From: a virus
Taxonomy: Duplodnaviria > Caudoviricetes
Length of the DNA: 64,000 nt
Virus record (IMG/VR): IMGVR_UViG_3300036861_000572
Location: 2,042-66,041 of that record
Reading direction: 5' to 3' (one strand)
Shown here: in pieces, positions 471 to 52,849 of the stretch
How the letters are laid out: each line of letters opens with the position of its first letter
Numbering within the stretch: the stretch's first letter is position 1
The notes under the pieces: model-generated
What the model was told of the DNA's origin: nothing
Databases searched by the model: none
What the model saw: only the letters and a program-made list of their open reading frames with translations
Position numbers and translations under genes: made by a program

Positions 471-1471
471 GACCACCGCCTGACGATGGCGCCGAATTCG
501 GCGAAGACGTCGCGGAACCGTTCCGGCGGTGCGAACTCGCCGCCGAGATGGACGAACACCGACCCGTGGGTCGAGGTGGTTGCCTTCTCGCGGCCGGCCG
601 AGTCGAAGTCGATGCGATGGTCGGTGAAGCACAACTGGTGGTCCCAGAGGGGCTGGAACCATTCGGTGTCGGTGCAGTGGGCATTGACCAGCGCCACGGC
701 ATTGGTGACACGGCCGGCCTCGTGCTCGGCGACCAGCTTGGTGATGAATTCGCCGGCCAGGCGGCCGTAGGGTGGGTTGAGGAAGACGCGGCCCTTCCAC
801 GGCTGGGCGAGCCCGTCCTCGTGCTTCGAGTAGTACCGGTCGGCCCCGACGACCTGGTTGGCTGCCTCGCTCGAGGCCGGGTCGAGGTCGATGTGGCCGA
901 GCACGATGCGGACCGCGTCGAGGTAGCGGGCCGGGGTGTACCACTCATTCTCGGTCGAGAGACGAAGGCCGCCGGTCTCCCAAGTCTGCACCGAGGCCAT
1001 GAGGCCGGCGGTGGTAATCTCGTCCTCTTCGCCATCAGCGATGCGGGCGATATATGCCTCGAACGCATCAGCCGGGACACGAGCTACCTCACGCCATCGA
1101 ACAGCGCGGTTCCTCGCTGCTGGGCCAGTCTCACCCAGCCCAAGTTCAACTAGCGTTGGCGGGAAACCCGTACCATCGTGGGATGGGTTTCCGTCACTGC
1201 TTGGGCGACCACCCTGGCTCGGTTCCCAGTCGTCATCGTCCAGCATCTCGCCGCCGCGGCGCTGGGCGCGCAGCTTGAACTCGGCCCAATCGTTCTGGAT
1301 GCGCCGGCCAGCTTTCGCCTTGCGCGCCGCCACCCGGATGACCTCGGCGCGGTCGACGATGGCCGCGAGGTCGGGAAGCGTCTCGATCTCGGCGAGGGCG
1401 CCGTAGGCTGCCTCGAGCAGCTTGCCGGACCGGATCTGCGCCGGGCGGATCTGCGCGAGGTCCGTGGTCAC
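467..1471 (-). CDS. phage-type DNA N6-adenine methyltransferase with N-terminal helical extension
   Basis: EWYTP...DLDPASS (SAM-binding) and VFLNPPY catalytic motif. Confidence 0.85.
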   Translation of the reverse strand: MTTDLAQIRPAQIRSGKLLEAAYGALAEIETLPDLAAIVDRAEVIRVAARKAKAGRRIQNDWAEFKLRAQRRGGEMLDDDDWEPSQGGRPSSDGNPSHDGTGFPPTLVELGLGETGPAARNRAVRWREVARVPADAFEAYIARIADGEEDEITTAGLMASVQTWETGGLRLSTENEWYTPARYLDAVRIVLGHIDLDPASSEAANQVVGADRYYSKHEDGLAQPWKGRVFLNPPYGRLAGEFITKLVAEHEAGRVTNAVALVNAHCTDTEWFQPLWDHQLCFTDHRIDFDSAGREKATTSTHGSVFVHLGGEFAPPERFRDVFAEFGAIVRRWS

Positions 1472-1686
1472 TGGCCGACCGCCTTCCCGGCTGGCTTGCC
1501 GAGCAGTTGGTCGATGGTGATGCCGAGGGCGCCGGCGAGCTTGCTGGCGGTGTCGACCTTGATGTCGGTGACCGCGCCCCGCTCGATCGCCGAGAGGTGC
1601 ATGAGGCTGACGTTGGCCTCGCGGGCCAGCTCGGCCTGTGTCTTGCCTGCGGCCTTCCGCAGCTCAGCGACCCTGCTTCCGTCCAC
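1468..1686 (-). CDS. XRE-family HTH regulator
   Basis: LRKAAGKTQAELAREANVSLMHLSAIERG...LAGALGITIDQLL. Confidence 0.9.
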   Translation of the reverse strand: MDGSRVAELRKAAGKTQAELAREANVSLMHLSAIERGAVTDIKVDTASKLAGALGITIDQLLGKPAGKAVGQ

Positions 1687-1715
1687 ACGGCCTCCCTACT
1701 GGTTGTGAAGTCCGA

Positions 1716-1812
1716 ACGGTACCGCTGTGGCGGTACCCTGTCAATCCCTACAGACCGACAATCCAGAGCAGGACCCCGGATCTGTTGACAGGTAACGGTT
1801 TCCCTGTAGTCT
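1716..1812. promoter_or_regulatory. divergent sigma70-type promoters with a palindromic operator
   Basis: minus strand: TTGACA(1744-1739)-17 nt-TACCGT; plus strand: TTGACA(1785-1790)-16 nt-TAGTCT; inverted repeat GGTACCGC-TGTG-GCGGTACC at 1718-1737 overlaps the leftward promoter. Confidence 0.7.
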
Positions 1813-1868
1813 TAACGGCAGAGCGTTACCGGTCCGCCGTGACAGCTCGCCCGTCCGACAGGGGAGTC

Positions 1869-2249
1869 ATGCGCATGGGAGCAGAAGAGTTCGGCCACCT
1901 CGTGCGGGTCGGCATCGCCACCAAAGGGCTCAGCCAGGGCGCCGTCGGCCGGCGCGTCACCAAGCGGCTGCGCGACGACCGGGGCCTGGACGCCACACAG
2001 GTCCGGCTCGTCATGGAAGGCCGCAGACGCCTCGACCACGATCTGGTCGAGGCGTTCATCGATGTGCTGGACCTCGATGCGGCCGACGCGTGGGAAGCAG
2101 CCGGGCTCTGGCCGCCGGACCTCTCCGCCGACGACTACCGAGTTTTCGCCGCCGTGGGGGGCGCGGCGGCTAGCGTCGCAGTCGTTCAGCTACCGGGCAC
2201 GAAGAGGAACAGGTCTCCTTACGCACTTCGCCTCGTTCGCGCGGCGTAG
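1869..2249 (+). CDS. HTH-like regulator divergent from the XRE gene (repressor/Cro-like)
   Basis: GGGGAG RBS; FGHLVR...GLSQGAVG...LDLDAADAWEAAG resembles actinophage XRE repressors. Confidence 0.6.
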   Translation: MRMGAEEFGHLVRVGIATKGLSQGAVGRRVTKRLRDDRGLDATQVRLVMEGRRRLDHDLVEAFIDVLDLDAADAWEAAGLWPPDLSADDYRVFAAVGGAAASVAVVQLPGTKRNRSPYALRLVRAA

Positions 2250-2264
2250 GCCCCAAGCAGTCCA

Positions 2265-3311
2265 ATGAGCGGATTTGCACCGCTCGGGGTGAGTGCTAGC
2301 CTCCCGCCGTCCGTCACGGGGGCCTCGGGCGATTGGACCGGAGAGGGGGGCTCTGGTGCCGTCGTGCCTACCGACCAGCGCAGCCGCCTGTGGGCGGCCT
2401 ACTACCAGCACCTGCTCGACGCCGACCGGAGCCAGCGCACGGTCACCGAGTACCGCCGCGCGCTGACCAGCTTCTGGGACCACGCCGGCAAGCAGCCCGG
2501 CCGGGTCGGCCCCGCCGACCTGCGCCGCTTCCTCGCCCGCCCGACCGTCCCCGGCGGGAACGCCCGGGGCCCGTACCTGGCCGACTCGACCAAGGCCCGC
2601 GAGGCCGCATCGGTGCGCGCGTTCTACCGCTGGGCCACCGCGACCCGCCGCGTCAAGCGCGACCCGTTCGCCGGGATGGTCCTGCCCCGCTCGCGGCCGG
2701 GCCCGCCCCGTGACCTGCCCCTGGAAGCGATCACCGCGATCATCGACTACACGATCGCCTTCCCCCGCGTGTGGCTGGAGGTGTGGCTCGGCTACGGCGC
2801 CGGCCTGCGGGTGGGGGAGATGGCCGGCTTGCGGATCGAGGACTGCGATCTATCCGACGCCGTCATCCGGGTGCACGGCAAGGGCCGCCGAGAACGGCTC
2901 GTCCCACTGCACTCCGAGGTGGCACGGGTGCTGCGGCTGTCGGTGGCCGGGCGGCCGGGCGTCGGCCCGGTGCTGGCCCAGCACGCCCACCCCGACCGGC
3001 CGTGCTCCCGCAAGACAATCGGGTACGAACTGAATGACGGCATCCGCGCTGGCCTGGCCGCTGGCCGGCAGTCCGACCCGACGCTGCCGGCCTCCGCGAC
3101 CGCGCACCAGCTGCGCCACTCGTTCGCGACCGCGCTAGCGGCCCAGGGCGTCACCGAGCGCGCCATCGGGCTGCTGCTGGGCCACGCCGACCCGAAGACG
3201 ACCCGCCGCTACACGATCGGGTTCAGCCGGGACGCACACGAGGCGGTCGAGCGGCTGCCGATCCCGGGCCGTGCTGGCCTCGCTTCCCCGGGGCCAGCCC
3301 GGACCCCCTAG
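2265..3311 (+). CDS. tyrosine recombinase/integrase (true start may be near 2364)
   Basis: GLRVGE, VHGKG, HQLRHSFAT, LLGHAD...TRRY catalytic residues. Confidence 0.93.
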   Translation: MSGFAPLGVSASLPPSVTGASGDWTGEGGSGAVVPTDQRSRLWAAYYQHLLDADRSQRTVTEYRRALTSFWDHAGKQPGRVGPADLRRFLARPTVPGGNARGPYLADSTKAREAASVRAFYRWATATRRVKRDPFAGMVLPRSRPGPPRDLPLEAITAIIDYTIAFPRVWLEVWLGYGAGLRVGEMAGLRIEDCDLSDAVIRVHGKGRRERLVPLHSEVARVLRLSVAGRPGVGPVLAQHAHPDRPCSRKTIGYELNDGIRAGLAAGRQSDPTLPASATAHQLRHSFATALAAQGVTERAIGLLLGHADPKTTRRYTIGFSRDAHEAVERLPIPGRAGLASPGPARTP

Positions 3312-3350
3312 TCTTGCGCTCGATATAGGGGGCATGCTAGAGTCGCAAGC

Positions 3351-3635
3351 ATGAAGACGCCGCAGATGACCGGACCGATGCTGCTTGTGCTCAACGCCCT
3401 CGCCCGCGACCCGGGCAAGCAGCGCTACGGCCTTGACCTCTCCCAGGAGACCGGCCTGAAGCCGGGCACCATCTACCCAGTCCTGGCCCGATTGGAGCGC
3501 TACGAGTGGGTGGCCAGCGCGTGGGAGGAGATCGATCCGCACGCCGCCGGCCGGCGACCGCGCCGCTATTACCAGCTCACCCCTGCTGGCCAGTTCGCCG
3601 CCAGCCGCCACCTCGCCAGGTTCAGGAAGGCTTGA
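3351..3635 (+). CDS. PadR-family transcriptional regulator, probably leaderless
   Basis: YGLDL...GTIYPVLARLE..W...RPRRYYQLT; TAGAGT 7 nt upstream of the ATG. Confidence 0.9.
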   Translation: MKTPQMTGPMLLVLNALARDPGKQRYGLDLSQETGLKPGTIYPVLARLERYEWVASAWEEIDPHAAGRRPRRYYQLTPAGQFAASRHLARFRKA

Positions 3636-35799: not shown

Positions 35800-38529
35800 T
35801 CAGAAGATTTCCGGGGCCGGCAGGGCCTCGACGCCGAGGTGCGCGCGCACGGCATGACCCCACAACGCCAGCGTCACCGCCGGCAGCGGCGACAGGTCCA
35901 CACCGACGTTCTTGCGGACCCACAGCCACCGGTCGCCCAGATCCCGCTTGAGCGCCCCCGCGACGGCGACGTCCAAGTCGCCCTGGCCGAGGTGACGCAC
36001 CGTCGACGGTTCATCCACCAACGGGTTCGCCCCGGTCGCGTCGTAGAACGCCCCGGACGCGCCGGCGATCTCGCCGACCGACGGCTTCAGGATCTCCAGG
36101 CTGGCCGCTTCGGCCTCGGCGATCAGGGAGTTCGCCGGCCCTGAGGGGGCGATGACGATCGCGCACGGCGACCAGCGGTCAGCCCGGTCGACCCGTTCGC
36201 GCAGCCACGGCACGACCCACGACCCGCCGCGGCGGTGCTCCACCAGTTCGACGTGGCGCAGGCCGTCGGCACGGCAGCCCACCACGCCGATACTCGCCCA
36301 GGTCCGGTCGGGGGTCATGTCGACCGCGAACGCCGGCCGGTCCACGATCTGGCTGGCAGGGTCACGGATCGCCTGCCACGCGGCCTGGCCGATCACCAGC
36401 CATTCCGCCGGGGTCTCGTCCAGCCACTGGTTCAGGTAGGCACGGCGGAACTCGCCCAGGTCCATGGAGGCGAACTCGGCCGCTACGGCCGCCTCGGTCA
36501 CGGTATGGCCCAGCGCCGGCATGCACGCCCACCACGTCGCCGGGTCGTCCGCCGGCGCGTCGTTCGGCGCCGACCACTCGAAGTACGCCACCCCCGAGGT
36601 CAGCCCCGCCTCGGCGGCGAGGCGGCCAGCCTCCACCTTCCCCCACAGGTACGGCGAGAGGCTCTTGGACTTCCCCGCGGTGGAAACCACATCGAGCTGG
36701 GGCTGCGGCCGGGTGATCATCGCCGGCGCCATCGCCTGCTCGACCCGGGCGTCCTCCCGGGCGAACGCCTCGTCGATCACGCCCTGGTCCAGCGTCGGGC
36801 CATGCCCAGAGTCGTCGGTCGGCGCATCGATGGCGTGGATCGACCCGTTCCGCCAGCGGATCGCCTCCTGGCCGATCTGCTTGCGCACCGTGAACAGCGG
36901 CCGGAACGCAGACGCCTCAAGGATCGGGAGGTGGTCGTCTTCCCATTTCTCCCTGGCCTTCAACCGGGTCTGCGCGGTGTAGGCGATCCGCTGCGCACGG
37001 CCGAACGCCTGCGCCCGGTGAACCATCTTGGCCAGCAGCAGCGTCGTGTTGTGCGTAGGAACCAGATCACGGCCAGCGAGGAACAGGCCGTCAGGCGAGT
37101 CGACCTTGATGCACCGCACAGGCCGCGACGGCACCGGCTCGATGCTGGCGAGGCTGACGGCGTGTAGCTCGCCAGCCCGGGCCCGCGATGCCTGGATGCG
37201 AGCGAGCTTCCGGGGAAGGCGGAACGGGATCGGATCGCTGGCTTCGGGTGTGAAGCATACCCGCCACCGACGGCCTACCTCCCGGCCGTTCAGGACCGCG
37301 GCGTTCTCCCGGATCGTGGCCCGCCAGCCCAGCGAGCGGGCTAGGTAGAGCGCCGCGTCGGCAAGCACCTGGCGAGTCGAGCAGAACTCAACCCGAGCCG
37401 TTCCGCTGCTACCCATGGAGATGGAGCCGTCGGTGTCGAGCAAGCCCTGTAGGAGCGCCAACCGCTGATCCGTGCCGGCCGTCAGGTAGATGTCCGGGAC
37501 GTGCTTATCGCCGAGGACGCCAAGCGCACACAGCCGCTGCTGCATCCCATCCCCGGAACGGACCTCCGGAAGGTTGCCACGGCGAGCAGCCCTGCTGTAG
37601 CAGCTAGGACAGAGCCCGCGCGCGATATCCCGACGCGGGCAGCCGCCTACTGAGCATTCCCGGCCCAGCTTGGTGATGCCGAGGCGGACACGCCAGGCAG
37701 TACGGTCACGTCGCGGCTGCCCGTGGATGTAGCCGGCCGCGACGATCTGCTCAAGCAATGCGGCGAGATCCTCATCGCCGACCGTGAGCACAGCGGCAGC
37801 GCTGTGCCCGTCGCCTAGCCAGTACCCGAGAAGGTACGGGTCGATCGGCAGCTCGACCGGCTCGGACTTCAACACGCCCTGGGACGGTAGGCGGAACCGG
37901 AACTCGCGGCTTGCATACTGCTTGCCGCCCGTGGTGACCGTGCGGTTCTCCTGCCGCATCAGCCCACCAACCAGCCCGTAGGTCGGCAGGGTGCGCCACT
38001 GGAAGCTACGGGATCGATCCGAGCGCGAGCCCGTGCTCCGCGCCGCGAGGTGGTCCTCCACCGTCCACAGATGGTCCCGATCGGCAACCACGCTGCGGCC
38101 GTCCGTGGTCGTGACCCGGTAGCAGTCGTGGCCGTGCATGATGTCCGAGACGAACGTCACCCGCGTTGGATGCCCATCGGGGTGGAAGACCTCGTCGCCC
38201 TCGCGGATATCCCGCAACGTGACAAACCCGCGGGTGGTCAGAACCTCGGTGTCCGCATCCAAAGCTTTCCCGCTCTGCCGCGGCACCGTCAGGACAACCC
38301 GGCGGTAGACCAGCAGGCCCGTGTCGGGATCGGTCTCTAGCGCGACGTCGGCGACGTGGCGCTGCCACGGCATCAGCGGCGTCCCCAACGCCGCCGCGAA
38401 CCGGGCCAGCTCGCCGCCGCGTGTCGGCCGGTCGGTCCTCGGGGTCGTCCACCTAGGTGCGCAGGCGAGCCCGCTTGGCCCGCGCTCGCTCTCGGTCGCA
38501 AGTCCGGCACTTGCGCTGTGGGTTGCCAC
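35800..38529 (-). CDS. terminase large subunit containing an intein (start approximate)
   Basis: LMPWQ, VPRQSGK|T Walker A, VIDEAF Walker B, PALG, EF.RAYLN.W. Confidence 0.93.
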   Translation of the reverse strand: MATHSASAGLATESERGPSGLACAPRWTTPRTDRPTRGGELARFAAALGTPLMPWQRHVADVALETDPDTGLLVYRRVVLTVPRQSGKALDADTEVLTTRGFVTLRDIREGDEVFHPDGHPTRVTFVSDIMHGHDCYRVTTTDGRSVVADRDHLWTVEDHLAARSTGSRSDRSRSFQWRTLPTYGLVGGLMRQENRTVTTGGKQYASREFRFRLPSQGVLKSEPVELPIDPYLLGYWLGDGHSAAAVLTVGDEDLAALLEQIVAAGYIHGQPRRDRTAWRVRLGITKLGRECSVGGCPRRDIARGLCPSCYSRAARRGNLPEVRSGDGMQQRLCALGVLGDKHVPDIYLTAGTDQRLALLQGLLDTDGSISMGSSGTARVEFCSTRQVLADAALYLARSLGWRATIRENAAVLNGREVGRRWRVCFTPEASDPIPFRLPRKLARIQASRARAGELHAVSLASIEPVPSRPVRCIKVDSPDGLFLAGRDLVPTHNTTLLLAKMVHRAQAFGRAQRIAYTAQTRLKAREKWEDDHLPILEASAFRPLFTVRKQIGQEAIRWRNGSIHAIDAPTDDSGHGPTLDQGVIDEAFAREDARVEQAMAPAMITRPQPQLDVVSTAGKSKSLSPYLWGKVEAGRLAAEAGLTSGVAYFEWSAPNDAPADDPATWWACMPALGHTVTEAAVAAEFASMDLGEFRRAYLNQWLDETPAEWLVIGQAAWQAIRDPASQIVDRPAFAVDMTPDRTWASIGVVGCRADGLRHVELVEHRRGGSWVVPWLRERVDRADRWSPCAIVIAPSGPANSLIAEAEAASLEILKPSVGEIAGASGAFYDATGANPLVDEPSTVRHLGQGDLDVAVAGALKRDLGDRWLWVRKNVGVDLSPLPAVTLALWGHAVRAHLGVEALPAPEIF
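37048..38265 (-). mobile_element. class-3 (WCT) intein with LAGLIDADG endonuclease, 406 aa
   Basis: Ala1 ALDADT; DHLW; VRCI; PTHN|T; LLQGLLDTDG. Confidence 0.92.
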
Positions 38530-38974
38530 GACCGTCAAGGAACCGCCCCGTATTCGCCTCAGTCCAAGGATGCCCGGAAGGGCACGCCTCGGCGGTGGAT
38601 ACGGCGCGGCGAAGGCCGCCGCGCCGGGCCCGCGTCCGCTCCCGAGAGCACGTCCGGCAGTGCCGGTGGCCCTCAGCATCTACTGAGGTGTTCGCGTCGT
38701 CGTAGGGGTGGCCCTGCGGGCAGTGCGAGATCTGCTCGGTGCGATGACGGCAATTCTCGCGGTGCGTGACCGCTTCGAGGTGGGTTACCTCGACGCATGC
38801 CCTGTTCTCGCAGCGGTGGTGGATTTCCAGTCCGGCTGGGACGGCACCATGCATTCGCTCATAGGCGACAACGTGCGCCCGCCGAGTTCGGCCGCCGACG
38901 CGGACCTGCCCGTAGCCCTTCTTCGTTCGGCTACCAGACCACTCCTGGCATGGCTTCACGAGTTCGCTGGTCAT
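38453..38974 (-). CDS. HNH homing endonuclease, leaderless
   Basis: GYGQV..AHVVAYE..HHRCENRACV..HLEAVTHREN; two CPxGH repeats; TATAAT 6 nt before the ATG. Confidence 0.9.
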   Translation of the reverse strand: MTSELVKPCQEWSGSRTKKGYGQVRVGGRTRRAHVVAYERMHGAVPAGLEIHHRCENRACVEVTHLEAVTHRENCRHRTEQISHCPQGHPYDDANTSVDAEGHRHCRTCSRERTRARRGGLRRAVSTAEACPSGHPWTEANTGRFLDGRGNPQRKCRTCDRERARAKRARLRT

Positions 38975-39011
38975 GCGGCTATTATACCAGCCGATGCGAA
39001 CAGTGAAGCGA

Positions 39012-39146
39012 CTAGCCTCTCCCCTCCCACTCAGCCACGGGCTCGCCGTACGCGGCGTCTCCGCGCGTCTTGCGGTTCAGGTCCCTCGGCATCGGGAACC
39101 GGGGCGAGCAGCGAAGCGACGAAGCCCTGTCCAGAGTCGCGGTCAC
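39012..39146 (-). pseudogene. orphaned original N-terminus of terminase large subunit
   Basis: SSLRCSPRFPMPRDLNRKTRGD aligns with TerL SGLACAPRWTTPRT-DRPTRGG. Confidence 0.6.
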
Positions 39147-39393
39147 CGCGCCGCCCCAAGCTCTCCATCGTCACCGTGAGCTGCCTGGCGACCGCCGCCA
39201 TGTCCCTGGCGCTCGCATCGACCCGCAAGCTCATCTCCTCGTCGCACTGGCGGCACACCCCACGGCACTCGCCGTCCAGCAGCTGCGCCAACGCCAACGC
39301 CGTCGCGGCCAGCCCCGACGGCGCCCGCACGCTCAGGCCGAGCTTGCGGAGGTCCCGCCGGATCGCCGTCTCAACCGGCCCGAAGTCAGGCAT
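39031..39393 (-). CDS. terminase small subunit
   Basis: GPVE.A.RRDL..LAATALALAQLLD...AAVARQL; actinophage TerS-like, upstream of TerL. Confidence 0.7.
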   Translation of the reverse strand: MPDFGPVETAIRRDLRKLGLSVRAPSGLAATALALAQLLDGECRGVCRQCDEEMSLRVDASARDMAAVARQLTVTMESLGRRGDRDSGQGFVASLLAPVPDAEGPEPQDARRRRVRRARG

Positions 39394-43178: not shown

Positions 43179-43682
43179 TCAGCGCCGCCATGTTCTGCCA
43201 CTACGAATGGCATAGACGGTGGATTCCGAGACGCCAAAGCGAGCCGCCGTCATCTCTACTGGCTCAAGGCCGGCGAGACGCCTGATCTCCACGACTTGTG
43301 GCCAGGTGAGCCTGGGAGTGTGCGTACCCGTCCGCAGGCCAAGCCTGATTGCGTGCTGAGCATTGGCCTTCGGGGTCGCCCATTCCAGGTTGCCGAGACA
43401 GTTGTTGGCCTTATCCCCATCCTGGTGGTTGCACTCATGGCCTCGGGGGCACGGGCCGATGAACGACTCCAGGACGAGCTGATGGACCTTTCGGTCACGC
43501 CGCTGGCCATACCGGAACAGGGCGACCTGCCGGTATCCCTGTCTCGTCGGCCTGGGGGCCAGGACAAACCCGGGCCTGGTGCGTGAACCACGGGCGACCC
43601 GCCGCACTCGTCCGTGGTCGCTGACCTCGTACCAGCCCTCATATCCGACGACGGGAAGCCAGCGTTCGGTAGCATCAGCCAT
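43179..43682 (-). CDS. NUMOD4-HNH homing endonuclease
   Basis: ERWLPVVGYEGWYEVSDHGRVR; VHQLVLESF..CNHQDGDKANN..NLEW.T..N. Confidence 0.92.
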   Translation of the reverse strand: MADATERWLPVVGYEGWYEVSDHGRVRRVARGSRTRPGFVLAPRPTRQGYRQVALFRYGQRRDRKVHQLVLESFIGPCPRGHECNHQDGDKANNCLGNLEWATPKANAQHAIRLGLRTGTHTPRLTWPQVVEIRRLAGLEPVEMTAARFGVSESTVYAIRSGRTWRR

Positions 43683-43836
43683 GCTCGGCACCTCCATGGG
43701 GTGTCGGCCACGGCCCGGGCGGTCGCCACCGCGCCGGGCCACTCTATGGCGGTATTCTAGCAGGTCAGAGGCCATATTCCGAATCTTCCGGTGCAGGGGG
43801 CGGACCCTGTCGGGGGTCCGCCCAACGATGGTCGGA

Positions 43837-43956
43837 CTAGGCCCAAATCCACTTGTCGGCGGCCAGCGCGGCCGGGGCGAGCGCGAGCAGCGCGCCGGCG
43901 GCCAGGGTCACGGCCACGGCCACGCGCGTCCGCCAATGCTTCGAGCGGTCCTTCAT
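43837..43956 (-). CDS. 39-aa signal-peptide propeptide
   Basis: GGAGGTGA RBS; MKDRSKHWRTRVAVAVTLAAGALLALAPAALAADKWIWA; 10-bp hairpin at 43798-43823 downstream. Confidence 0.7.
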   Translation of the reverse strand: MKDRSKHWRTRVAVAVTLAAGALLALAPAALAADKWIWA

Positions 43957-43961
43957 GCGGT

Positions 43962-44270
43962 TCACCTCCCCTCGGGGTCATCGGGGGCCGGACCGTGCCC
44001 GGGCGGACGAGCAACGGAAGGGTCCAGGTAGGCCTCGAATTCGCGGGCGAGCGAGATGATCCAGCCCTTGATGACGGCGTCCTCGAGCGCCGCGCGGGTG
44101 AAGATGGCCCCGGCCACCTCGATGGCGTTGCCGAGCGCGCATGCCCGGACGGAATCCACATACGGCCGGGGCGTGAAGGCCTCGGCAGGACGCGACGGCG
44201 GGGCCGGTACGCGGTCGCTGACCGGCGGCGGGACGGTGCGCGCTGGGCTGACCTGTCCTCGGCCGCTCAC
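43962..44270 (-). CDS. hypothetical protein
   Basis: GTGA coupling. Confidence 0.55.
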   Translation of the reverse strand: MSGRGQVSPARTVPPPVSDRVPAPPSRPAEAFTPRPYVDSVRACALGNAIEVAGAIFTRAALEDAVIKGWIISLAREFEAYLDPSVARPPGHGPAPDDPEGR

Positions 44271-44842
44271 TTGGCCACCCCGCCGGGGCAGGAAGCATCG
44301 TCCAAGACGACCGGGGCCGCGTCACGGGTGGTGACGTAGACCCGGTGGCCATCGAGGTACTCAGCCGCGACCCGGAGCGTCTCGGCGTCCTCCCGGAATC
44401 GACCGAGGCCCATGTTGCAGGAGTCGCAGAGCAACCCTCTGACCTCTCCGGTGTCATGGTTGTGGTCAACGACAAGCGGTCCCAGTGGAGCCACCCGACA
44501 GATCGCGCAGCGCCCGGACTGCTCGGTAAGCAGGTCGGCGTACTGCTCTGGCGTCATGCTGTAGTTACGACGCAGCCACCGCGCACGGTGCTCAGCGGGA
44601 TCGTGGACACGTTTCGCATTGGCACGGCGACGGTTCTCGGCCAGCCGTTCCGGGTGTTCCGCTTGCCATTGACGCGCCCGATCCCGAGCACGTTGTGCAT
44701 ACTCAGGATCTGACCGGTACTTCGCGCGGCGCGTGGTCGCCATGCACGCACGGCATTTCGACCGGTGGCCATCGCGCATCCTCTTGGACCGGTAGAAGTC
44801 CATAAGCGGTTTGGCCTGCTGGCACTCCTTGCACGTCTTCAT
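44267..44842 (-). CDS. endonuclease VII-family homing endonuclease
   Basis: QSGRCAIC..LVVDHNHDTGEVRGLLC..CN.GLG.F.ED...L..A..YL. Confidence 0.92.
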   Translation of the reverse strand: MKTCKECQQAKPLMDFYRSKRMRDGHRSKCRACMATTRRAKYRSDPEYAQRARDRARQWQAEHPERLAENRRRANAKRVHDPAEHRARWLRRNYSMTPEQYADLLTEQSGRCAICRVAPLGPLVVDHNHDTGEVRGLLCDSCNMGLGRFREDAETLRVAAEYLDGHRVYVTTRDAAPVVLDDASCPGGVAK

Positions 44843-45108
44843 CGTGCACCTCCCGGGCAGAAGGTGTCCGCAATCACAACAGGCGGTGCGTCACGGGTCG
44901 AAACGAAGATCCTATGGCCATGCCCGTCGCAGTGGTGCGCGACGTTGGCGAACCAGTCGGGGAACTCGATGATCTCGACCGGGGTGGAGGTGACCTGGCC
45001 GACGTCGGCGTCGCCGCGGCCACGCACGTTGTTGTAGGAGCTGCAGCCGGCCAGTAGGGCGGCCGCGACGATGGCGAGGGCGAGGAGGATTCGTCGGGTC
45101 ATGGCCAT
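44839..45108 (-). CDS. small lipoprotein
   Basis: lipobox LAGC; FPD.F.NVA..CDG. Confidence 0.8.
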   Translation of the reverse strand: MAMTRRILLALAIVAAALLAGCSSYNNVRGRGDADVGQVTSTPVEIIEFPDWFANVAHHCDGHGHRIFVSTRDAPPVVIADTFCPGGAR

Positions 45109-45461
45109 CAGAGTGGCTCCTCGTCATCGGTGTCGTCGTCGTCATCGGGTGCGGTGATGGCGGGCTGGCTTGCGGAGTCGCGAATCATTCGGCGGGCGCT
45201 CCACGTGCTGACCGGCTCGGCCGGGGCGTCCATCGCGGCGACCAGCCGGGCGGTCTCCTCGTCGACCGCTTCCCAGGAGTAGACCGCCGAGGGGTTGAGG
45301 TGGATCGTGCGGGCCTGGTGGCCGCCCGAGGCCGGGATGTCCAGGCGGAGGAAGTCCTGCCCGGCGACCTTGACCTCGGTCAGGAACCCGGCGGCGCGCT
45401 GCCGGCCGAAAAGGTCACATACACACCATTGGCCCAGCGGCTTCGCGTCCTGCTCGATCAT
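45108..45461 (-). CDS. conserved phage hypothetical protein
   Basis: WC.CDLFGRQR.AG..TE..VAG..FLRLDIP. Confidence 0.7.
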   Translation of the reverse strand: MIEQDAKPLGQWCVCDLFGRQRAAGFLTEVKVAGQDFLRLDIPASGGHQARTIHLNPSAVYSWEAVDEETARLVAAMDAPAEPVSTWSARRMIRDSASQPAITAPDDDDDTDDEEPL

Positions 45462-45465
45462 GGCA

Positions 45466-45954
45466 TCAACCTCCGATGATCGGGCCGGCGTCCTGATCCT
45501 CATCAGCCAAAACGGCCCGGAGGCGCCCGGCCAGCTCACGCAGGGCCGGATCGCCATCGGCCTTCGGGCCGATGACCTGCTCGCACTCGCGCAGCATGCC
45601 CTCGTAGAACTCCCGGTCTTGCCGTTCGCTCGCCCAGTCCTCGGTGATGAACGGGATACGCTCGTGGCTCTCGCGGATGGCCTGGACGACCTCGGCGAGC
45701 ACCTCGACGGGCTGGTCGTGGTGGAGGTAGCCGGCGAGCGGTTCGAGGACGGCGAGCAGGTCGGCGACGTCTCCGGGCGCGTGGGCGATGAAGGAGGCGT
45801 CGCCGGGCTCGAAGACGGTGACGATCCAGCGGTCGGAGTCCACCTCGCGCTCAACGACGATCTCGGTGTTGCCGCCGAACGGGCGGGGCGGCTCTGCCCT
45901 CCACCGTCCCGGCGTCACGGCTGCTCGGCGCCGGGAGATCTCGGTGAGGTTCAT
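45466..45954 (-). CDS. Ead/Ea22-like protein
   Basis: AVTPGRW...DASFIAHAP.DV.DLL. Confidence 0.65.
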   Translation of the reverse strand: MNLTEISRRRAAVTPGRWRAEPPRPFGGNTEIVVEREVDSDRWIVTVFEPGDASFIAHAPGDVADLLAVLEPLAGYLHHDQPVEVLAEVVQAIRESHERIPFITEDWASERQDREFYEGMLRECEQVIGPKADGDPALRELAGRLRAVLADEDQDAGPIIGG

Positions 45955-46658
45955 GGTGTCCCTTTCGTGGTTGTCGTGGGTGCGGGGCAGGCACCCCACA
46001 GGCCCCACTTGTGGGCCTTCGCGTCGGCTTCCAGCTCGGCAAAGCCCTTGGCATGCAATGTGTTGGGCCGGATCGGCAGCACCCTCGCGAATCCGCCATG
46101 CAGCAGTTCAGCATTCAGCATCCGGCCGCCGGGCAGCACCTCGGGCGCGTACACGTACGCCAAGAGCCGGCCGTAGCGGTCGCGGGGCTGGTGGCCGAGG
46201 ACTAGGACCAGCCGGGTGCCGGGCGGTACCAGGTGGGCGGTCGCGGCGGCAGCCTCGGGGCCGTAGCACTGCACGGGCTTGGTGGGATGGTGGGTCTCGG
46301 GGGTGTCGACGCCGACCAGACGGACGGTCTCGGTCTTGCCGTCGACCAGGCGGGCGGCCAGGGTGTCGCCATCGACGACGCGGACGACCCAGGCGGCGCA
46401 GGTGTCGTCGGGCGCGCGGGCGCACGCCGCTGAGCTGGTGGCCGGTATCGTGGCGGTTGTGGGCGGGGAGGCGGGGAACGCGGTGGTCGGGTCGCTCCGT
46501 GTGCAGCCGGCCAGGACGAGGGTTCCCAGCAGCGCGGCCAGGGGCAGCGCCCGGCCGAACGCCCGGTAGAACGAGCGCAGGACGAACCCGCCCTGGGAGA
46601 CCAGTGCTGCCTTGGCGAACTCCTGGCCGGCCCGTTCGCCCAGTTCGGTGCAGTCCAT
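45951..46658 (-). CDS. thermonuclease (SNase) lipoprotein (start uncertain)
   Basis: LAGC lipobox; VVDGDT, VRLVGVDTPE, DRYGRLLAYV, GLW. Confidence 0.92.
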   Translation of the reverse strand: MDCTELGERAGQEFAKAALVSQGGFVLRSFYRAFGRALPLAALLGTLVLAGCTRSDPTTAFPASPPTTATIPATSSAACARAPDDTCAAWVVRVVDGDTLAARLVDGKTETVRLVGVDTPETHHPTKPVQCYGPEAAAATAHLVPPGTRLVLVLGHQPRDRYGRLLAYVYAPEVLPGGRMLNAELLHGGFARVLPIRPNTLHAKGFAELEADAKAHKWGLWGACPAPTTTTKGTP

Positions 46659-49776: not shown

Positions 49777-51954
49777 CTAGTCGGCAGGGTGGGAATTGGC
49801 TGGTTGCTGGTATGGCGTCAGGTGCGCCTGGACCTCCTGCAACGTGCCGTCGGGATTCCGCCACCAGCCCCGCCCACGCGGGCCTTTGCGGGCGTGCGGG
49901 ACGGGCCGGTCCAGGGCCAGCGCGTACTCGCCGGCGTCGAGCCAGCCGGCCAGGCGCGCGTCGAAGCAGGAGCGGACGTGGCCGCCGATGGCGTCGGCGC
50001 GGGCGTCGACGGTCAGGGCCAGGACGTGGACGCCGCGCTTGCCGCCCTGGTCGAGGAATTTCTCCTCGACCAGCATGGCGGCATCACGGCGGGGGGCGTA
50101 GCTGGGCGAGGTCTTGGCGGGGATGCGCAGGACGCTGCGGGTCTCGTCGATGACCAGCAGGATCCGCGTGGTGGGCTCGACCAGGGGGTCGCGGGCGTCG
50201 TAGGCGGCTTCGACGCGGCCCAGGGTGCGGCGGATGGTGAGCTGGTCGTGGACGCTGGGGTCGATGACTTCGACCTGCCAGTGCCGCAGCCGGCGGACGT
50301 AGCCGCCGAGCCACAGCGCGAACGAGCTGTTGTGCGTCGGGATGCAGGACCGGCCAGCCAGGTAGAGGCGATTTGGCGAGTCCACCTGAATGCAGCGCAC
50401 GGGCACCGACGGCACCGGGCGGACGTCGGTGACGTAGCGCCGACGCTGCACGTCCCGGATCGCGCCGAGCTTCTGCCTGTTGAGCTTGCGGGGCAGCCGG
50501 AACACGGGCAGGTCGCTCACGAAGCTGATCCCGTACTCAGTGCCGCAGGGCTTGCCATAGAGCGTAGCCAGCGAGGTGCTCATTCGGGCCTTGATCCCAA
50601 GGCCAATGATCAGTTCGAGCACCTGTTCGGCGAGGACTTGCCTGGTGATCGAGAACCGGCAGGCGCCAGCCCCCATCGCCTGGGCGGTGCCGTCGGTGTC
50701 CATCAGGCCCTGCAGCAGCGCGAGGCGCTGCGGCACCGAGGCATGCAGGTATTGGCGAGGGATGTGCTTGTCGTTCAGGACGCCCATCAGCCGCAGCGTC
50801 TTCTGCAGGCCATAGATCCGGTAGCTCGTGGCCTTGCCGGCGTTCTGTGCCCTGGTCGGCTTGAGCACGTAGCCGGCGCTTTCGATCTCGGCGACGATCT
50901 CGGAATCGGCGGTGGTGATGATTGCGGCGCTGGAATAGCCGTCACCGAGCCAGGCGCCGAGAACGTAGGGGTCGACTGGCAGGTCAGCGGGTGGGTACTG
51001 CAACGGTGCGGTGAGGCCGATCGAGTGGTTGGCGTACCTCTTGGCGCCCTGCGGCCAGTGCAGCGTTGCGCGGATCTGTTCGGTGGTGGCCAGCGCCGGC
51101 CCGGTGCGCTTCCATGGCTGGTCGTGGTACGGGGCACGCATGGGGTTGGCGAGCACCCTGCGCCGGTCGGCTGCCGAGCGGCGCGCTGCTCGGGTCTCGG
51201 TCAGCCACTGATGCTGGGTGTCAGCGACGATCACCGAGCCGTCGTCAAATTCAACCGCGTAGCAGGACCGGTCGTGCATTGTCTCGGTTGTGGCCAGGAT
51301 GGTGCAGGGTTGGCCGCGCTCATCGAAGACCTGGCCACCGGGGGCAAGTTCGCCCATGGTGGTCCAACCAGTCGGCGTCGGGACCGGCGTGTCTAGCGCC
51401 AGCGCCTTGCCCCAGCCGGTGCGGGCGACGACGAGGCAGTGGTAGGCGGCGGTCACGTCCCAGGTGGCCGGGCCCGTGGCCGTCTCGCCGACGGGCAGGA
51501 CCCACGGCGCCAGGAACGCCGGTTCAGGGTGGGCGGGGACCTCGGGCAGCCCGGGGGCCTGGGCGATGACGACCCAGCGGGACCAGCGGCCACGGCAGCG
51601 GGTGACGGTCCATGGTCGTCCGGTGTGGTGCTCGAAGTGGCTGGCAAGGCCACCGAACCTGGATTCGTCCGGGTTGAGCCGGCAAAACGCCAGGTAGCGG
51701 ACGGGGAGGCCGCCTTCGGTGCGCGGCGAGGGCCAGACGTGGCCCTTGACCGGGGTGCGGGTCGGCAGGCCGGGCGCGACGCCGGCGCGTGCCCTGGCTT
51801 GTCTGGTCGAGTCGAACAGATGGCCTTCGTCGATGCACAGCGTCCACAGGCGGTTCCACGTCGTGACGTAGCGGACGACGGGGGGAACGAACGCGCCGGT
51901 AACCGCAGCGAGCATCAGCACGAAGGCGATGGCGACAAGGAGCGACCAGGTCAT
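49777..51954 (-). CDS. FtsK/TraB-like membrane ATPase containing an intein
   Basis: N-terminal TM; H.LVVARTGWGK|S Walker A; LLVIDE Walker B; GVHVLAL; PRGRG. Confidence 0.75.
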   Translation of the reverse strand: MTWSLLVAIAFVLMLAAVTGAFVPPVVRYVTTWNRLWTLCIDEGHLFDSTRQARARAGVAPGLPTRTPVKGHVWPSPRTEGGLPVRYLAFCRLNPDESRFGGLASHFEHHTGRPWTVTRCRGRWSRWVVIAQAPGLPEVPAHPEPAFLAPWVLPVGETATGPATWDVTAAYHCLVVARTGWGKALALDTPVPTPTGWTTMGELAPGGQVFDERGQPCTILATTETMHDRSCYAVEFDDGSVIVADTQHQWLTETRAARRSAADRRRVLANPMRAPYHDQPWKRTGPALATTEQIRATLHWPQGAKRYANHSIGLTAPLQYPPADLPVDPYVLGAWLGDGYSSAAIITTADSEIVAEIESAGYVLKPTRAQNAGKATSYRIYGLQKTLRLMGVLNDKHIPRQYLHASVPQRLALLQGLMDTDGTAQAMGAGACRFSITRQVLAEQVLELIIGLGIKARMSTSLATLYGKPCGTEYGISFVSDLPVFRLPRKLNRQKLGAIRDVQRRRYVTDVRPVPSVPVRCIQVDSPNRLYLAGRSCIPTHNSSFALWLGGYVRRLRHWQVEVIDPSVHDQLTIRRTLGRVEAAYDARDPLVEPTTRILLVIDETRSVLRIPAKTSPSYAPRRDAAMLVEEKFLDQGGKRGVHVLALTVDARADAIGGHVRSCFDARLAGWLDAGEYALALDRPVPHARKGPRGRGWWRNPDGTLQEVQAHLTPYQQPANSHPAD
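50329..51405 (-). mobile_element. class-3 (WCT) intein with LAGLIDADG endonuclease, 359 aa
   Basis: Ala1 ALALDTPV; HQW; VRCI; PTHN|S; LLQGLMDTDG. Confidence 0.92.
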
Positions 51955-52532
51955 GGCCGTCGTTCCTTCGGGAGGAACCGGCCCGTCGCGGGGTCGCGGG
52001 GCAGGTTGCGAGCGTGGTCGTAGGCCTCCGGCCTGCGGTTGCGGTTGCCGGCGTACGCCTCGGGTCCCCGGTTGCGGTTCTGCTCGCTCCAGGTCGCCCA
52101 GCGGCAATTGCTCGGCTCGTAGTTACCGTTGCCGTTGATCCGGTCGAGCGTGTGCTTGGAGGTCGGCTTCGGCCCCATGTCGGCGAGGAAATTGGCGAAC
52201 GATCGCCACCGCTCGCAGACGGTGATGCCGCGACCGCCGTAGTAGGGGTAGCTGATGTGGGTCGGGAGCGTGCATCGGTCCAGCATGCCGCGCCATGCCC
52301 GGTGCTCGGGCGTGCGGGACTTGCCGTGCGTTCTGCGCCTCGCACCGGTGATCTCCCGTTGCAGGCAGCCGCAGGATCGCGTCTTACCCGTCACGAGCTG
52401 GGCGACGCGAACTCGGACTTCGACACCGCAGTCGCACCGGCACGGCACCTGGAACGTCGCCGCCGTTCCGTTGGCCAGTGCGAGCAGCCGTCCGTACTTC
52501 GTGCCCGCGTTGACCGGGGTACGCTCAGCCAC
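51951..52532 (-). CDS. HNH-type homing endonuclease (CxCDCG/SCGC family)
   Basis: CRCDCG, TRSCGC, YGGRGITVCERW, LDRINGNGNYEPSNCRWAT..EQ..N. Confidence 0.9.
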   Translation of the reverse strand: MAERTPVNAGTKYGRLLALANGTAATFQVPCRCDCGVEVRVRVAQLVTGKTRSCGCLQREITGARRRTHGKSRTPEHRAWRGMLDRCTLPTHISYPYYGGRGITVCERWRSFANFLADMGPKPTSKHTLDRINGNGNYEPSNCRWATWSEQNRNRGPEAYAGNRNRRPEAYDHARNLPRDPATGRFLPKERRP

Positions 52533-52614
52533 GCCATCGCCTCCTGTCAGGTGGTGGCCGGGCCCGGGGCGTCGCAAGCGCCGCCGGGCCGTTACATGAC
52601 GGTATTTTACCAGG

Positions 52615-52773
52615 TCAGAGGGCATATTCCGAATCCGTGTTCGAGAGACCAAACGAGACGGCGAGGGTCCAGACCCGGATCCAGGCCTTGACCCAGTGGA
52701 CCAGGGGCACACCGAAGGTGAGCGCGGCGGCGACCACGCAGCCGGCCAGGCTGGCGACGAGGACGGCGGTCAT
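52615..52773 (-). pseudogene. orphaned N-terminus of the FtsK-like gene
   Basis: TM followed by PLVHWVKAWIRVWTLAVSFG, versus PPVVRYVTTWNRLWTLCIDEG; stops inside the cassette left end. Confidence 0.55.
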
Positions 52774-52849
52774 GTGGTCCGCCCCCCGGTGAGCCAGCCC
52801 ACCAGCCGGGCGATGAGCAGCCAGACCAGTAGCCAGGCGAGGTAGCCGG

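Follow-up and report, generated by a model that had tools for sequence, protein, structure and literature searches.

Two ways of survival are usually assumed for homing endonucleases: they hide within genes, in introns or inteins, or occupy the space between genes, where they do no harm. A third, a spare gene end, has been documented in fungal mitochondria, where the mORF 'gene hybrids' of Glomus sp. involve atp6, atp9, cox2 and nad3 and where atp6 of Allomyces macrogynus is cited as the first case (PMC3630166). According to the same source, the native end of a hybrid gene matches the insertion-free relatives and the inserted end is diverged in its DNA, and the cleavage by the fungal element has been shown biochemically. 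Here, we describe a locus of this layout in a soil phage with a different family of nuclease. The locus lies in a DNA stretch of 64,000 nucleotides (the window), which corresponds to bases 2042-66041 of a 66,041-bp IMG/VR virus record from soil (IMGVR_UViG_3300036861_000572) with a G+C content of 70.9%. In the window, a small lipoprotein gene is followed by an Endonuclease VII (EndoVII) gene, and the open reading frame (ORF) of the latter ends with a second copy of the lipoprotein C-terminus. The arrangement is probably a mobile cassette of ~570 bp (44351-44922), consisting of foreign last 27 codons and a free-standing EndoVII homing gene and residing inside the lipoprotein gene. The parts of the locus, given in window coordinates, are as follows.

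45108..44839, minus strand: whole lipoprotein gene, an 89-aa ORF with an LAGC lipobox at residues 19-22.
44923..45108, minus strand: 5' part of the lipoprotein gene, codons 1-62, probably native; contains the signal peptide, LAGC and the first beta strand and ends with the CDGHGHR motif.
44842..44922, with the stop codon at 44839-44841, minus strand: upstream copy of the gene end, codons 63-89; the working lipoprotein C-terminus, probably imported with the nuclease.
44848..44853, minus strand: Shine-Dalgarno sequence GGAGGT of the nuclease gene, within the Gly86-Gly87 codons of the upstream copy and 5 nt from the ATG.
44842..44267, minus strand: whole EndoVII ORF, 191 aa.
44354..44842, minus strand: EndoVII (DHHRN-type) core, codons 1-163, with an N-terminal CxxC...CxxC region and a C-terminal catalytic motif.
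44414-44509, minus strand: catalytic CxxC / DHNH / R / CxxC-N motif, residues 112-143, located by alignment with homologues.
44270..44353, with the stop codon at 44269-44267, minus strand: downstream copy of the gene end; forms codons 164-191 of the EndoVII ORF and continues the reading frame of the nuclease; probably the displaced native 3' end.
44267..44270, minus strand: GTGA overlap between the EndoVII stop and the GTG start of the next gene (44270..43962); the stop is read as the old lipoprotein stop.

The initial annotation had likened the locus to the atp6 case of fungal mitochondria, and the comparison agrees with the description in PMC3630166. Three traits of an mORF are found here: the ORF lies in the 3' part of the gene, a C-terminal copy stands in phase upstream of it, and what appears to be the native C-terminus is kept downstream. 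The two systems have the same order of gene core, in-phase inserted C-terminus, endonuclease ORF and second C-terminus, the inserted one being foreign and the displaced one native in the fungi and probably also in the phage; in both, the two ends are strongly diverged in DNA and similar in protein, and some of the fungal ORFs are also in phase with the flanking gene parts. They differ in host, nuclease and target: a high-GC soil phage takes the place of an organelle, an Endonuclease VII/DHHRN enzyme that of LAGLIDADG or GIY-YIG, and a small accessory gene for a lipoprotein that of a respiratory gene. A further difference is that the displaced end is joined to the nuclease C-terminus here and provides the stop codon of the ORF. 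A further organellar parallel comes from the mitochondrial DNA of Endoconidiophora resinifera, where partial C-terminal duplications of cob and atp6 lie beside degenerate endonuclease ORFs (PMC6279837). There, too, the duplicated gene end is parted from its gene by homing endonuclease ORFs, although several degenerate ORFs stand between the copies.

Among the T4-type phages, free-standing homing endonucleases are found within genes, with mobE in nrdA of phage Aeh1, mobA in gene 60 and seg43(25) in gene 43 as examples (PMC2988022). Like the EndoVII gene of the window, these genes lie in a functionally critical stretch of a phage gene and are tolerated there with neither intron nor intein. The T4-type insertions, however, split the host gene into two polypeptides that reassemble, whereas the lipoprotein gene stays whole by virtue of its replacement end; the word 'duplication' is absent from the available text of that review. 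F-CphI of cyanophage S-PM2 is presented as the one characterised phage homing endonuclease of the Endo VII-motif family (PMC6083498). It resembles the nuclease of the window in being a free-standing phage gene with the Endo VII motif (CxxC, DHxH, R, CxxC-N) in its C-terminal half; the two were compared by description, and the accessible parts of PMC6083498 mention no duplicated target-gene end for F-CphI. Free-standing Endo VII-like genes are also mentioned for actinobacteriophages (bioRxiv 10.1101/2025.01.02.630785). Within the accessible text of open-access papers and preprints, including PMC2988022, PMC10448857 and PMC12724721, we found no phage account of a duplicated replacement gene end beside a homing endonuclease. 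The layout is known from fungal mitochondria and has apparently not yet been described for phages; as far as can be read from the sequence, the phage host, the Endo VII-type nuclease and the in-frame joining of the displaced end to the nuclease are new.

The duplication itself is clear. EndoVII residues 164-191 (44353-44270) repeat the lipoprotein residues 61-89 (44928-44842), with an expect value (E) of 3.5e-8 in a tblastn search within the record and with 16 of the 24 aligned residues identical (pairwise E 7.8e-8). We built a profile of the lipoprotein family from 199 distinct members (202 before the removal of duplicates), leaving the window out, and found the two copies to score nearly equally, 31.7 bits for the upstream and 31.2 bits for the downstream copy (both ~3e-11). 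At the DNA level, 48 of 72 nucleotides are identical and the longest identical run is 11 nt; among the 16 residues conserved between the copies, the codon is the same at 5 and different at 11. If one of the copies had drifted unused, it should have decayed, and the pattern would be better explained by a recent meeting of two functional orthologous ends.

The copies differ also in their codon usage, and the break falls at the boundary of the duplication. Codons ending with G or C make up 58/62 of the 5' part of the lipoprotein gene, 15/27 of the upstream copy, 120/163 of the nuclease core and 24/28 of the downstream copy. The initial annotation had noted atypical A/T-ending codons at the end of the lipoprotein gene, and the counts bear this out: such codons are found at 12/27 positions of the upstream copy in comparison with 4/62 in the rest of the gene and 4/28 in the downstream copy. 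The difference is significant between the 5' part and the upstream copy (Fisher p = 6e-5) and between the downstream and the upstream copy (p = 0.019). The run of A/T-ending codons starts at codon 63, within the CDGHGHR motif. Tail and remainder of the gene agree in codon usage across 46 distinct homologues, where the biggest drop is 0.18 (read from a table); the drop here is 0.38. Of the 16,372 stretches of 27 codons in 74 other ORFs of the window, only 1.9% have a share as low as that of the upstream copy, and this is an upper bound, as many of them belong to doubtful ORFs.

The translation signals point to the same division. The Gly-Gly codons that spell the Shine-Dalgarno sequence of the nuclease gene belong to the upstream copy; the corresponding codons of the downstream copy are GGC GGG. 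An ATGA overlap joins the lipoprotein stop to the ATG of EndoVII. As the ribosome-binding site of the nuclease is inside the upstream copy, the copy and the nuclease appear to form one translational unit. At the other end, the next gene begins with a GTG that shares bases with the stop codon of the downstream copy, an arrangement expected of the original end of the gene. Taken together, the break in codon usage, the synonymous divergence and the ribosome-binding site in the upstream copy suggest that this copy was imported along with the nuclease, as a single cassette, and that the gene end downstream is the native one. The architecture is supported, and so is the polarity, the latter through the composition and the embedded ribosome-binding site. 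This was also the view of the initial annotation, which had proposed that the nuclease brought a diverged C-terminus and displaced the old one; the codon break at the duplication boundary, the Shine-Dalgarno sequence in the upstream copy and the native look of the downstream copy speak for it, and the coordinates it gave are right to within a few bases.

Residues 88-164 of the nuclease ORF match the Pfam family Endonuclease_7 (PF02945) with E 9.3e-24 and 83.6 bits against a cut-off of 23.6, and the PHROGs profile phrog_2633, 'endonuclease VII', covers residues 1-167 with E 7.5e-38 and extends to position 140 of the 142 in the profile. C112, C115, D126, H127, H129, R135, C139, C142 and N143 are invariant or near-invariant when the protein is aligned with 19 nuclease homologues, and the motif fits the CX2-4C / DHxH / R / CX2C-N pattern of the F-CphI (DHHRN) family and of T4 Endo VII. 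The catalytic domain occupies residues 88-164 of 191, behind the CxxC...CxxC region, and the protein therefore lacks the N-terminal catalytic domain characteristic of a T4 Endonuclease VII-type Holliday junction resolvase. Residue 163 marks the conserved ...YL end of the nuclease, and the ORF continues for another 28 residues. As the initial annotation had it, this continuation is the second copy of the lipoprotein end, fused in frame after the natural end of the nuclease. None of the 19 aligned homologues has the 28-residue tail; they stop 2-35 residues past YL with unrelated sequence.

The bacterial lipobox consensus L-[AS]-[GA]-C closes the signal peptide. The host gene has LAGC at residues 19-22, with Cys22 near-invariant in the family alignment and a helix at residues 3-23 in the structure model. 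We searched the protein with HMMER against 1.84 billion representative proteins and found 177 relatives at the cut-off of E <= 0.001, nearly all of them 77-135 aa in length and the closest 62% identical. The 89-aa ORF aligns with the family from end to end and scores 120.6 bits on the family profile; D33, C60 and C84 are invariant. The protein matches no Pfam or PHROGs family, Foldseek gave no match in the Protein Data Bank (PDB) at E <= 0.001, and the only name that the sources provide for the family is 'predicted small secreted protein'. The domain is also found in tandem arrays, with 19 stretches in a protein of 1,268 aa (P0120), seven in one of 704 aa (P0189) and five in one of 443 aa (P0248).

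To see the gene in its uninterrupted form, we fetched 54 lipoprotein loci, 3 viral and 51 metagenomic. In all 54, which were selected via the conserved CDGHGHR pattern and represent only members that keep the motif, the gene is a single open frame of ~90 aa that ends a few residues past the conserved Cys, and none of the 54 has an adjacent EndoVII gene or a second copy of the tail. Together with the absence of the tail from the nuclease homologues, this supports the proposal of the initial annotation that the nuclease was inserted within the gene. None of the 14 neighbouring window proteins had a match in any of the 54 loci; as no neighbour genes are in common, the loci show the form of the intact gene and not the window locus minus its insert. 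Two candidates for a parallel case were set aside. In L051, HNH and EndoVII genes lie 0.7-1 kb downstream of an intact homologue with other genes in between, and the protein P0241 (200 aa), which diverges past the conserved motif, has no nuclease and is likely a frameshift or a fusion.

The AlphaFold model of the lipoprotein has a mean predicted local distance difference test score (pLDDT) of 83.9, rising above 90 over residues 50-89, and contains strands at residues 56-60, 65-70 and 77-80. The duplication begins in the hairpin turn at residues 61-64, and the duplicated part holds two of the three strands as well as C84. According to the model, a lipoprotein cut at residues 61-64 and left with no replacement end would lose most of its small fold.

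Given these observations, the cassette may have spread as follows. It is placed at the codons of the most conserved motif of the family, CDGHGHR, and the nuclease would cut nuclease-free alleles at or near these codons. A genome with the cassette would then serve as the template for repair of the break, the homology arms being the 5' part of the gene on one side and the displaced end on the other. The foreign end would complete the lipoprotein in frame, and no splicing would therefore be needed; being recoded, it would lack the cut site and, with the longest identical run of 11 nt, would differ too much from the native end for recombination between the two to remove the cassette. The original end would be shifted downstream and read as the 28-residue tail of the nuclease ORF. 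By reading into the old end in frame, that ORF would terminate where the lipoprotein gene once did and stay coupled to the gene that follows.

To study whether the layout recurs, we surveyed the flanks of the best 80 of the 592 EndoVII matches in IMG/VR, using tblastx to compare the 700 bases that precede the nuclease ORF with an equal length beyond the catalytic domain. Five loci (L065, L068, L070, L080 and L131) were dropped for a flank shorter than 300 nt, leaving 75 loci and the window. As the null, we used 5,700 mismatched flank pairs, for which the 99th percentile was 23.5 bits, the 99.9th percentile 28.3 bits and the maximum 39.1 bits. The window itself scored 46.9 bits. Judged from the flanking sequences, the duplication of a gene end is clearly present at two of the 75 other loci (L081 and L071), probably at a third (L102) and weakly indicated at a fourth (L086).

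The two clear cases score above all null pairs. In L081 (92.3 bits; 1027-3248 of a contig with 47% G+C), the nuclease is directly followed by a repeat of the C-terminal 75 residues of a lambda-family portal protein. Between the copies, protein identity is 51% and 123/225 bases match, with the same codon at 15 of 38 conserved residues; the relatives of this portal in phage records are at most 36% identical, and a scan of viral contigs returned only the locus's own contig. In L071 (46.0 bits; 1484-2557), most of a dATP/dGTP diphosphohydrolase-like gene is present on both sides of the nuclease. There, the copies are 43% identical over 74 residues and fit the Pfam family PF18909 with 24.8 bits upstream and 69 bits downstream.

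The probable case, L102 (29.5 bits; 2396-3534), exceeds the 99.9th percentile of the null, in which five pairs reach 29 bits. Here it is the beginning of a C-5 DNA methylase gene, its first 12 codons, that occurs twice: the old start is joined in frame ahead of the nuclease, at its N-terminus, and the nuclease stop overlaps the new ATG of the methylase. Eleven of the 12 residues are the same, and 8 of those 11 codons are spelled differently. As read from these features, the locus is a mirror image of the window layout, placed at the 5' end of the gene. The weak case, L086 (24.0 bits; 2370-3016 of a contig with 32% G+C), is not significant, with 43 null pairs reaching 24 bits. The nuclease ORF closes with an in-frame repeat of the last nine codons of an endolysin-like gene; the protein end of the nearest relative differs from both copies and has one extra residue in common with the downstream copy, too little to count. 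Matches at L089, L060 and L074 (31.3, 30.4 and 23.5 bits) lie 377-688 nt past the nuclease domain and do not abut it, and they were not counted.

The assembly of the window locus agrees with Logan contigs, produced by a second assembler. Contigs from two soil runs, which may be the source samples of the record, span 43300-46194 and 43699-46194 with no differences, at depths of 88 and 364. A 1,865-nt contig from run X2, at a depth of 10, has flanks at 43918 and 45951 with ~85-88% identity and represents a diverged relative; it contains 1,358 other letters between these positions, in comparison with 2,032 in the window. Searches for closer relatives gave no hits. In 50,697 phage records, there was no match to the region 43700-46000 by blastn nor to the lipoprotein by tblastn; scans of viral contigs with the lipoprotein and both neighbouring genes, and of viral and genome contigs with the closest homologue (P0119), revealed no relative; and a word-indexed protein search with the lipoprotein returned only the window's own protein.

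That the pattern is an artefact, either a chance similarity or a chimeric metagenome assembly, is scarcely credible. The record is a metagenome-assembled virus, and the runs that hold the arrangement may be its source. The repeat, however, has E 3.5e-8 within the record and both of its copies reach ~3e-11 on the family profile, and the contigs of the second assembler agree with the record in both runs and at both depths. Also doubtful in the extreme is a local duplication with no homing, in which the gene end was doubled in place and a resident EndoVII, such as a Holliday-junction resolvase, came to lie between the copies through an unrelated rearrangement. The nuclease gene is only putatively mobile, and it is the sole EndoVII-family gene in the record, compatible with a housekeeping role as a resolvase; this is one of the points that weigh against a homing cassette. 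Copies made in place, on the other hand, start identical and evolve under one mutational regime, yet these show synonymous differences at 11/16 conserved residues and a codon usage of 15/27 versus 24/28, and the family profile is matched equally well by the unused and the used copy. As in F-CphI, the catalytic domain is C-terminal and not N-terminal as in T4 Endo VII, where it covers residues 10-73 (PMC6083498), and the same layout recurs at EndoVII genes beside unrelated host genes.

The reverse polarity, which we consider unlikely, would have the upstream copy as native: the nuclease would have landed just after the stop, carrying with it a remnant of a previous host's lipoprotein that is now the downstream copy. 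Being in frame with the nuclease, that copy would travel along, and intergenic free-standing endonuclease genes are the norm in T4-type phages (PMC2988022). Several of our results also weigh against the imported upstream end. The protein comparison with homologues barely separates the copies: in 187 comparisons, which are not independent, the downstream copy was nearer in 106 and the upstream copy in 37, with 44 ties, and the mean identity was 0.52 to the downstream and 0.46 to the upstream copy among the 20 homologues that resemble the 5' part most. The share of G/C-ending codons is lower in the upstream copy (0.56) than in the nuclease gene (0.74) with which it would have arrived, a difference that is not significant (p = 0.07). 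The background figure of 1.9% given above for codon usage was drawn from a crude ORF set with doubtful ORFs. Among the Logan contigs of the two soil runs, which drop rare variants, none joins across the cassette over 43300-46300, and the searches listed above found neither a close insertion-free relative nor a second copy of the cassette. With the closest lipoprotein homologue only 62% identical, the choice of the native copy has composition as its only guide. Three features nevertheless disfavour the reverse order: the departure from the phage codon usage is in the upstream copy (15/27 vs. 58/62) and not in the downstream copy (24/28), the Shine-Dalgarno sequence of the nuclease is made of upstream-copy codons, and the stop of the downstream copy retains the GTGA overlap with the next gene, like native phage genes.

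With the cassette as the preferred explanation, the locus places the spare-gene-end strategy of fungal mitochondria in a soil phage; the layout is also present in at least two to three other viral contigs, at portal, diphosphohydrolase-like and DNA methylase genes. The evidence leaves evenly balanced the broader proposal that EndoVII-type, and probably other, free-standing phage homing endonucleases commonly spread as self-repairing gene-end cassettes, in which a recoded end carries its own translation signals and the displaced end doubles as homology arm and translational-coupling adaptor. If true, homing would be a routine and unrecognised route for phages to exchange gene termini, and a splice-free alternative to introns and inteins would extend well beyond fungal mitochondria. 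If general in phages, the process would identify a mechanism swapping gene termini between phages and account for some of the orphan gene fragments and odd C-terminal extensions on annotated nuclease ORFs. As the junction marks the target, it would also indicate the likely cleavage sites and make the specificity of an uncharacterised nuclease directly testable.

The window contains other nuclease genes. Two genes downstream of EndoVII, at 43179-43775 on the minus strand, lies a second nuclease gene with NUMOD4 and HNH_3 domains in a dip of G+C to 0.62-0.64; the N-terminal leader of its product resembles that of an HNH ORF near 52620. At 51850-52800 (minus strand), an HNH gene stands between a 52-aa ORF and an FtsK-like ATPase gene, and the N-terminus of the ATPase resembles the 52-aa ORF (17/44 identical, pairwise E 3e-5), a weak case of a duplicated N-terminus. 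Another weak case of this kind is found at 38400-39200 (minus strand): there, an HNH gene is preceded by a 44-aa ORF with a weak resemblance to the large terminase ORF (959 aa; residues 69-106, 16/39 identical, pairwise E 5e-5).

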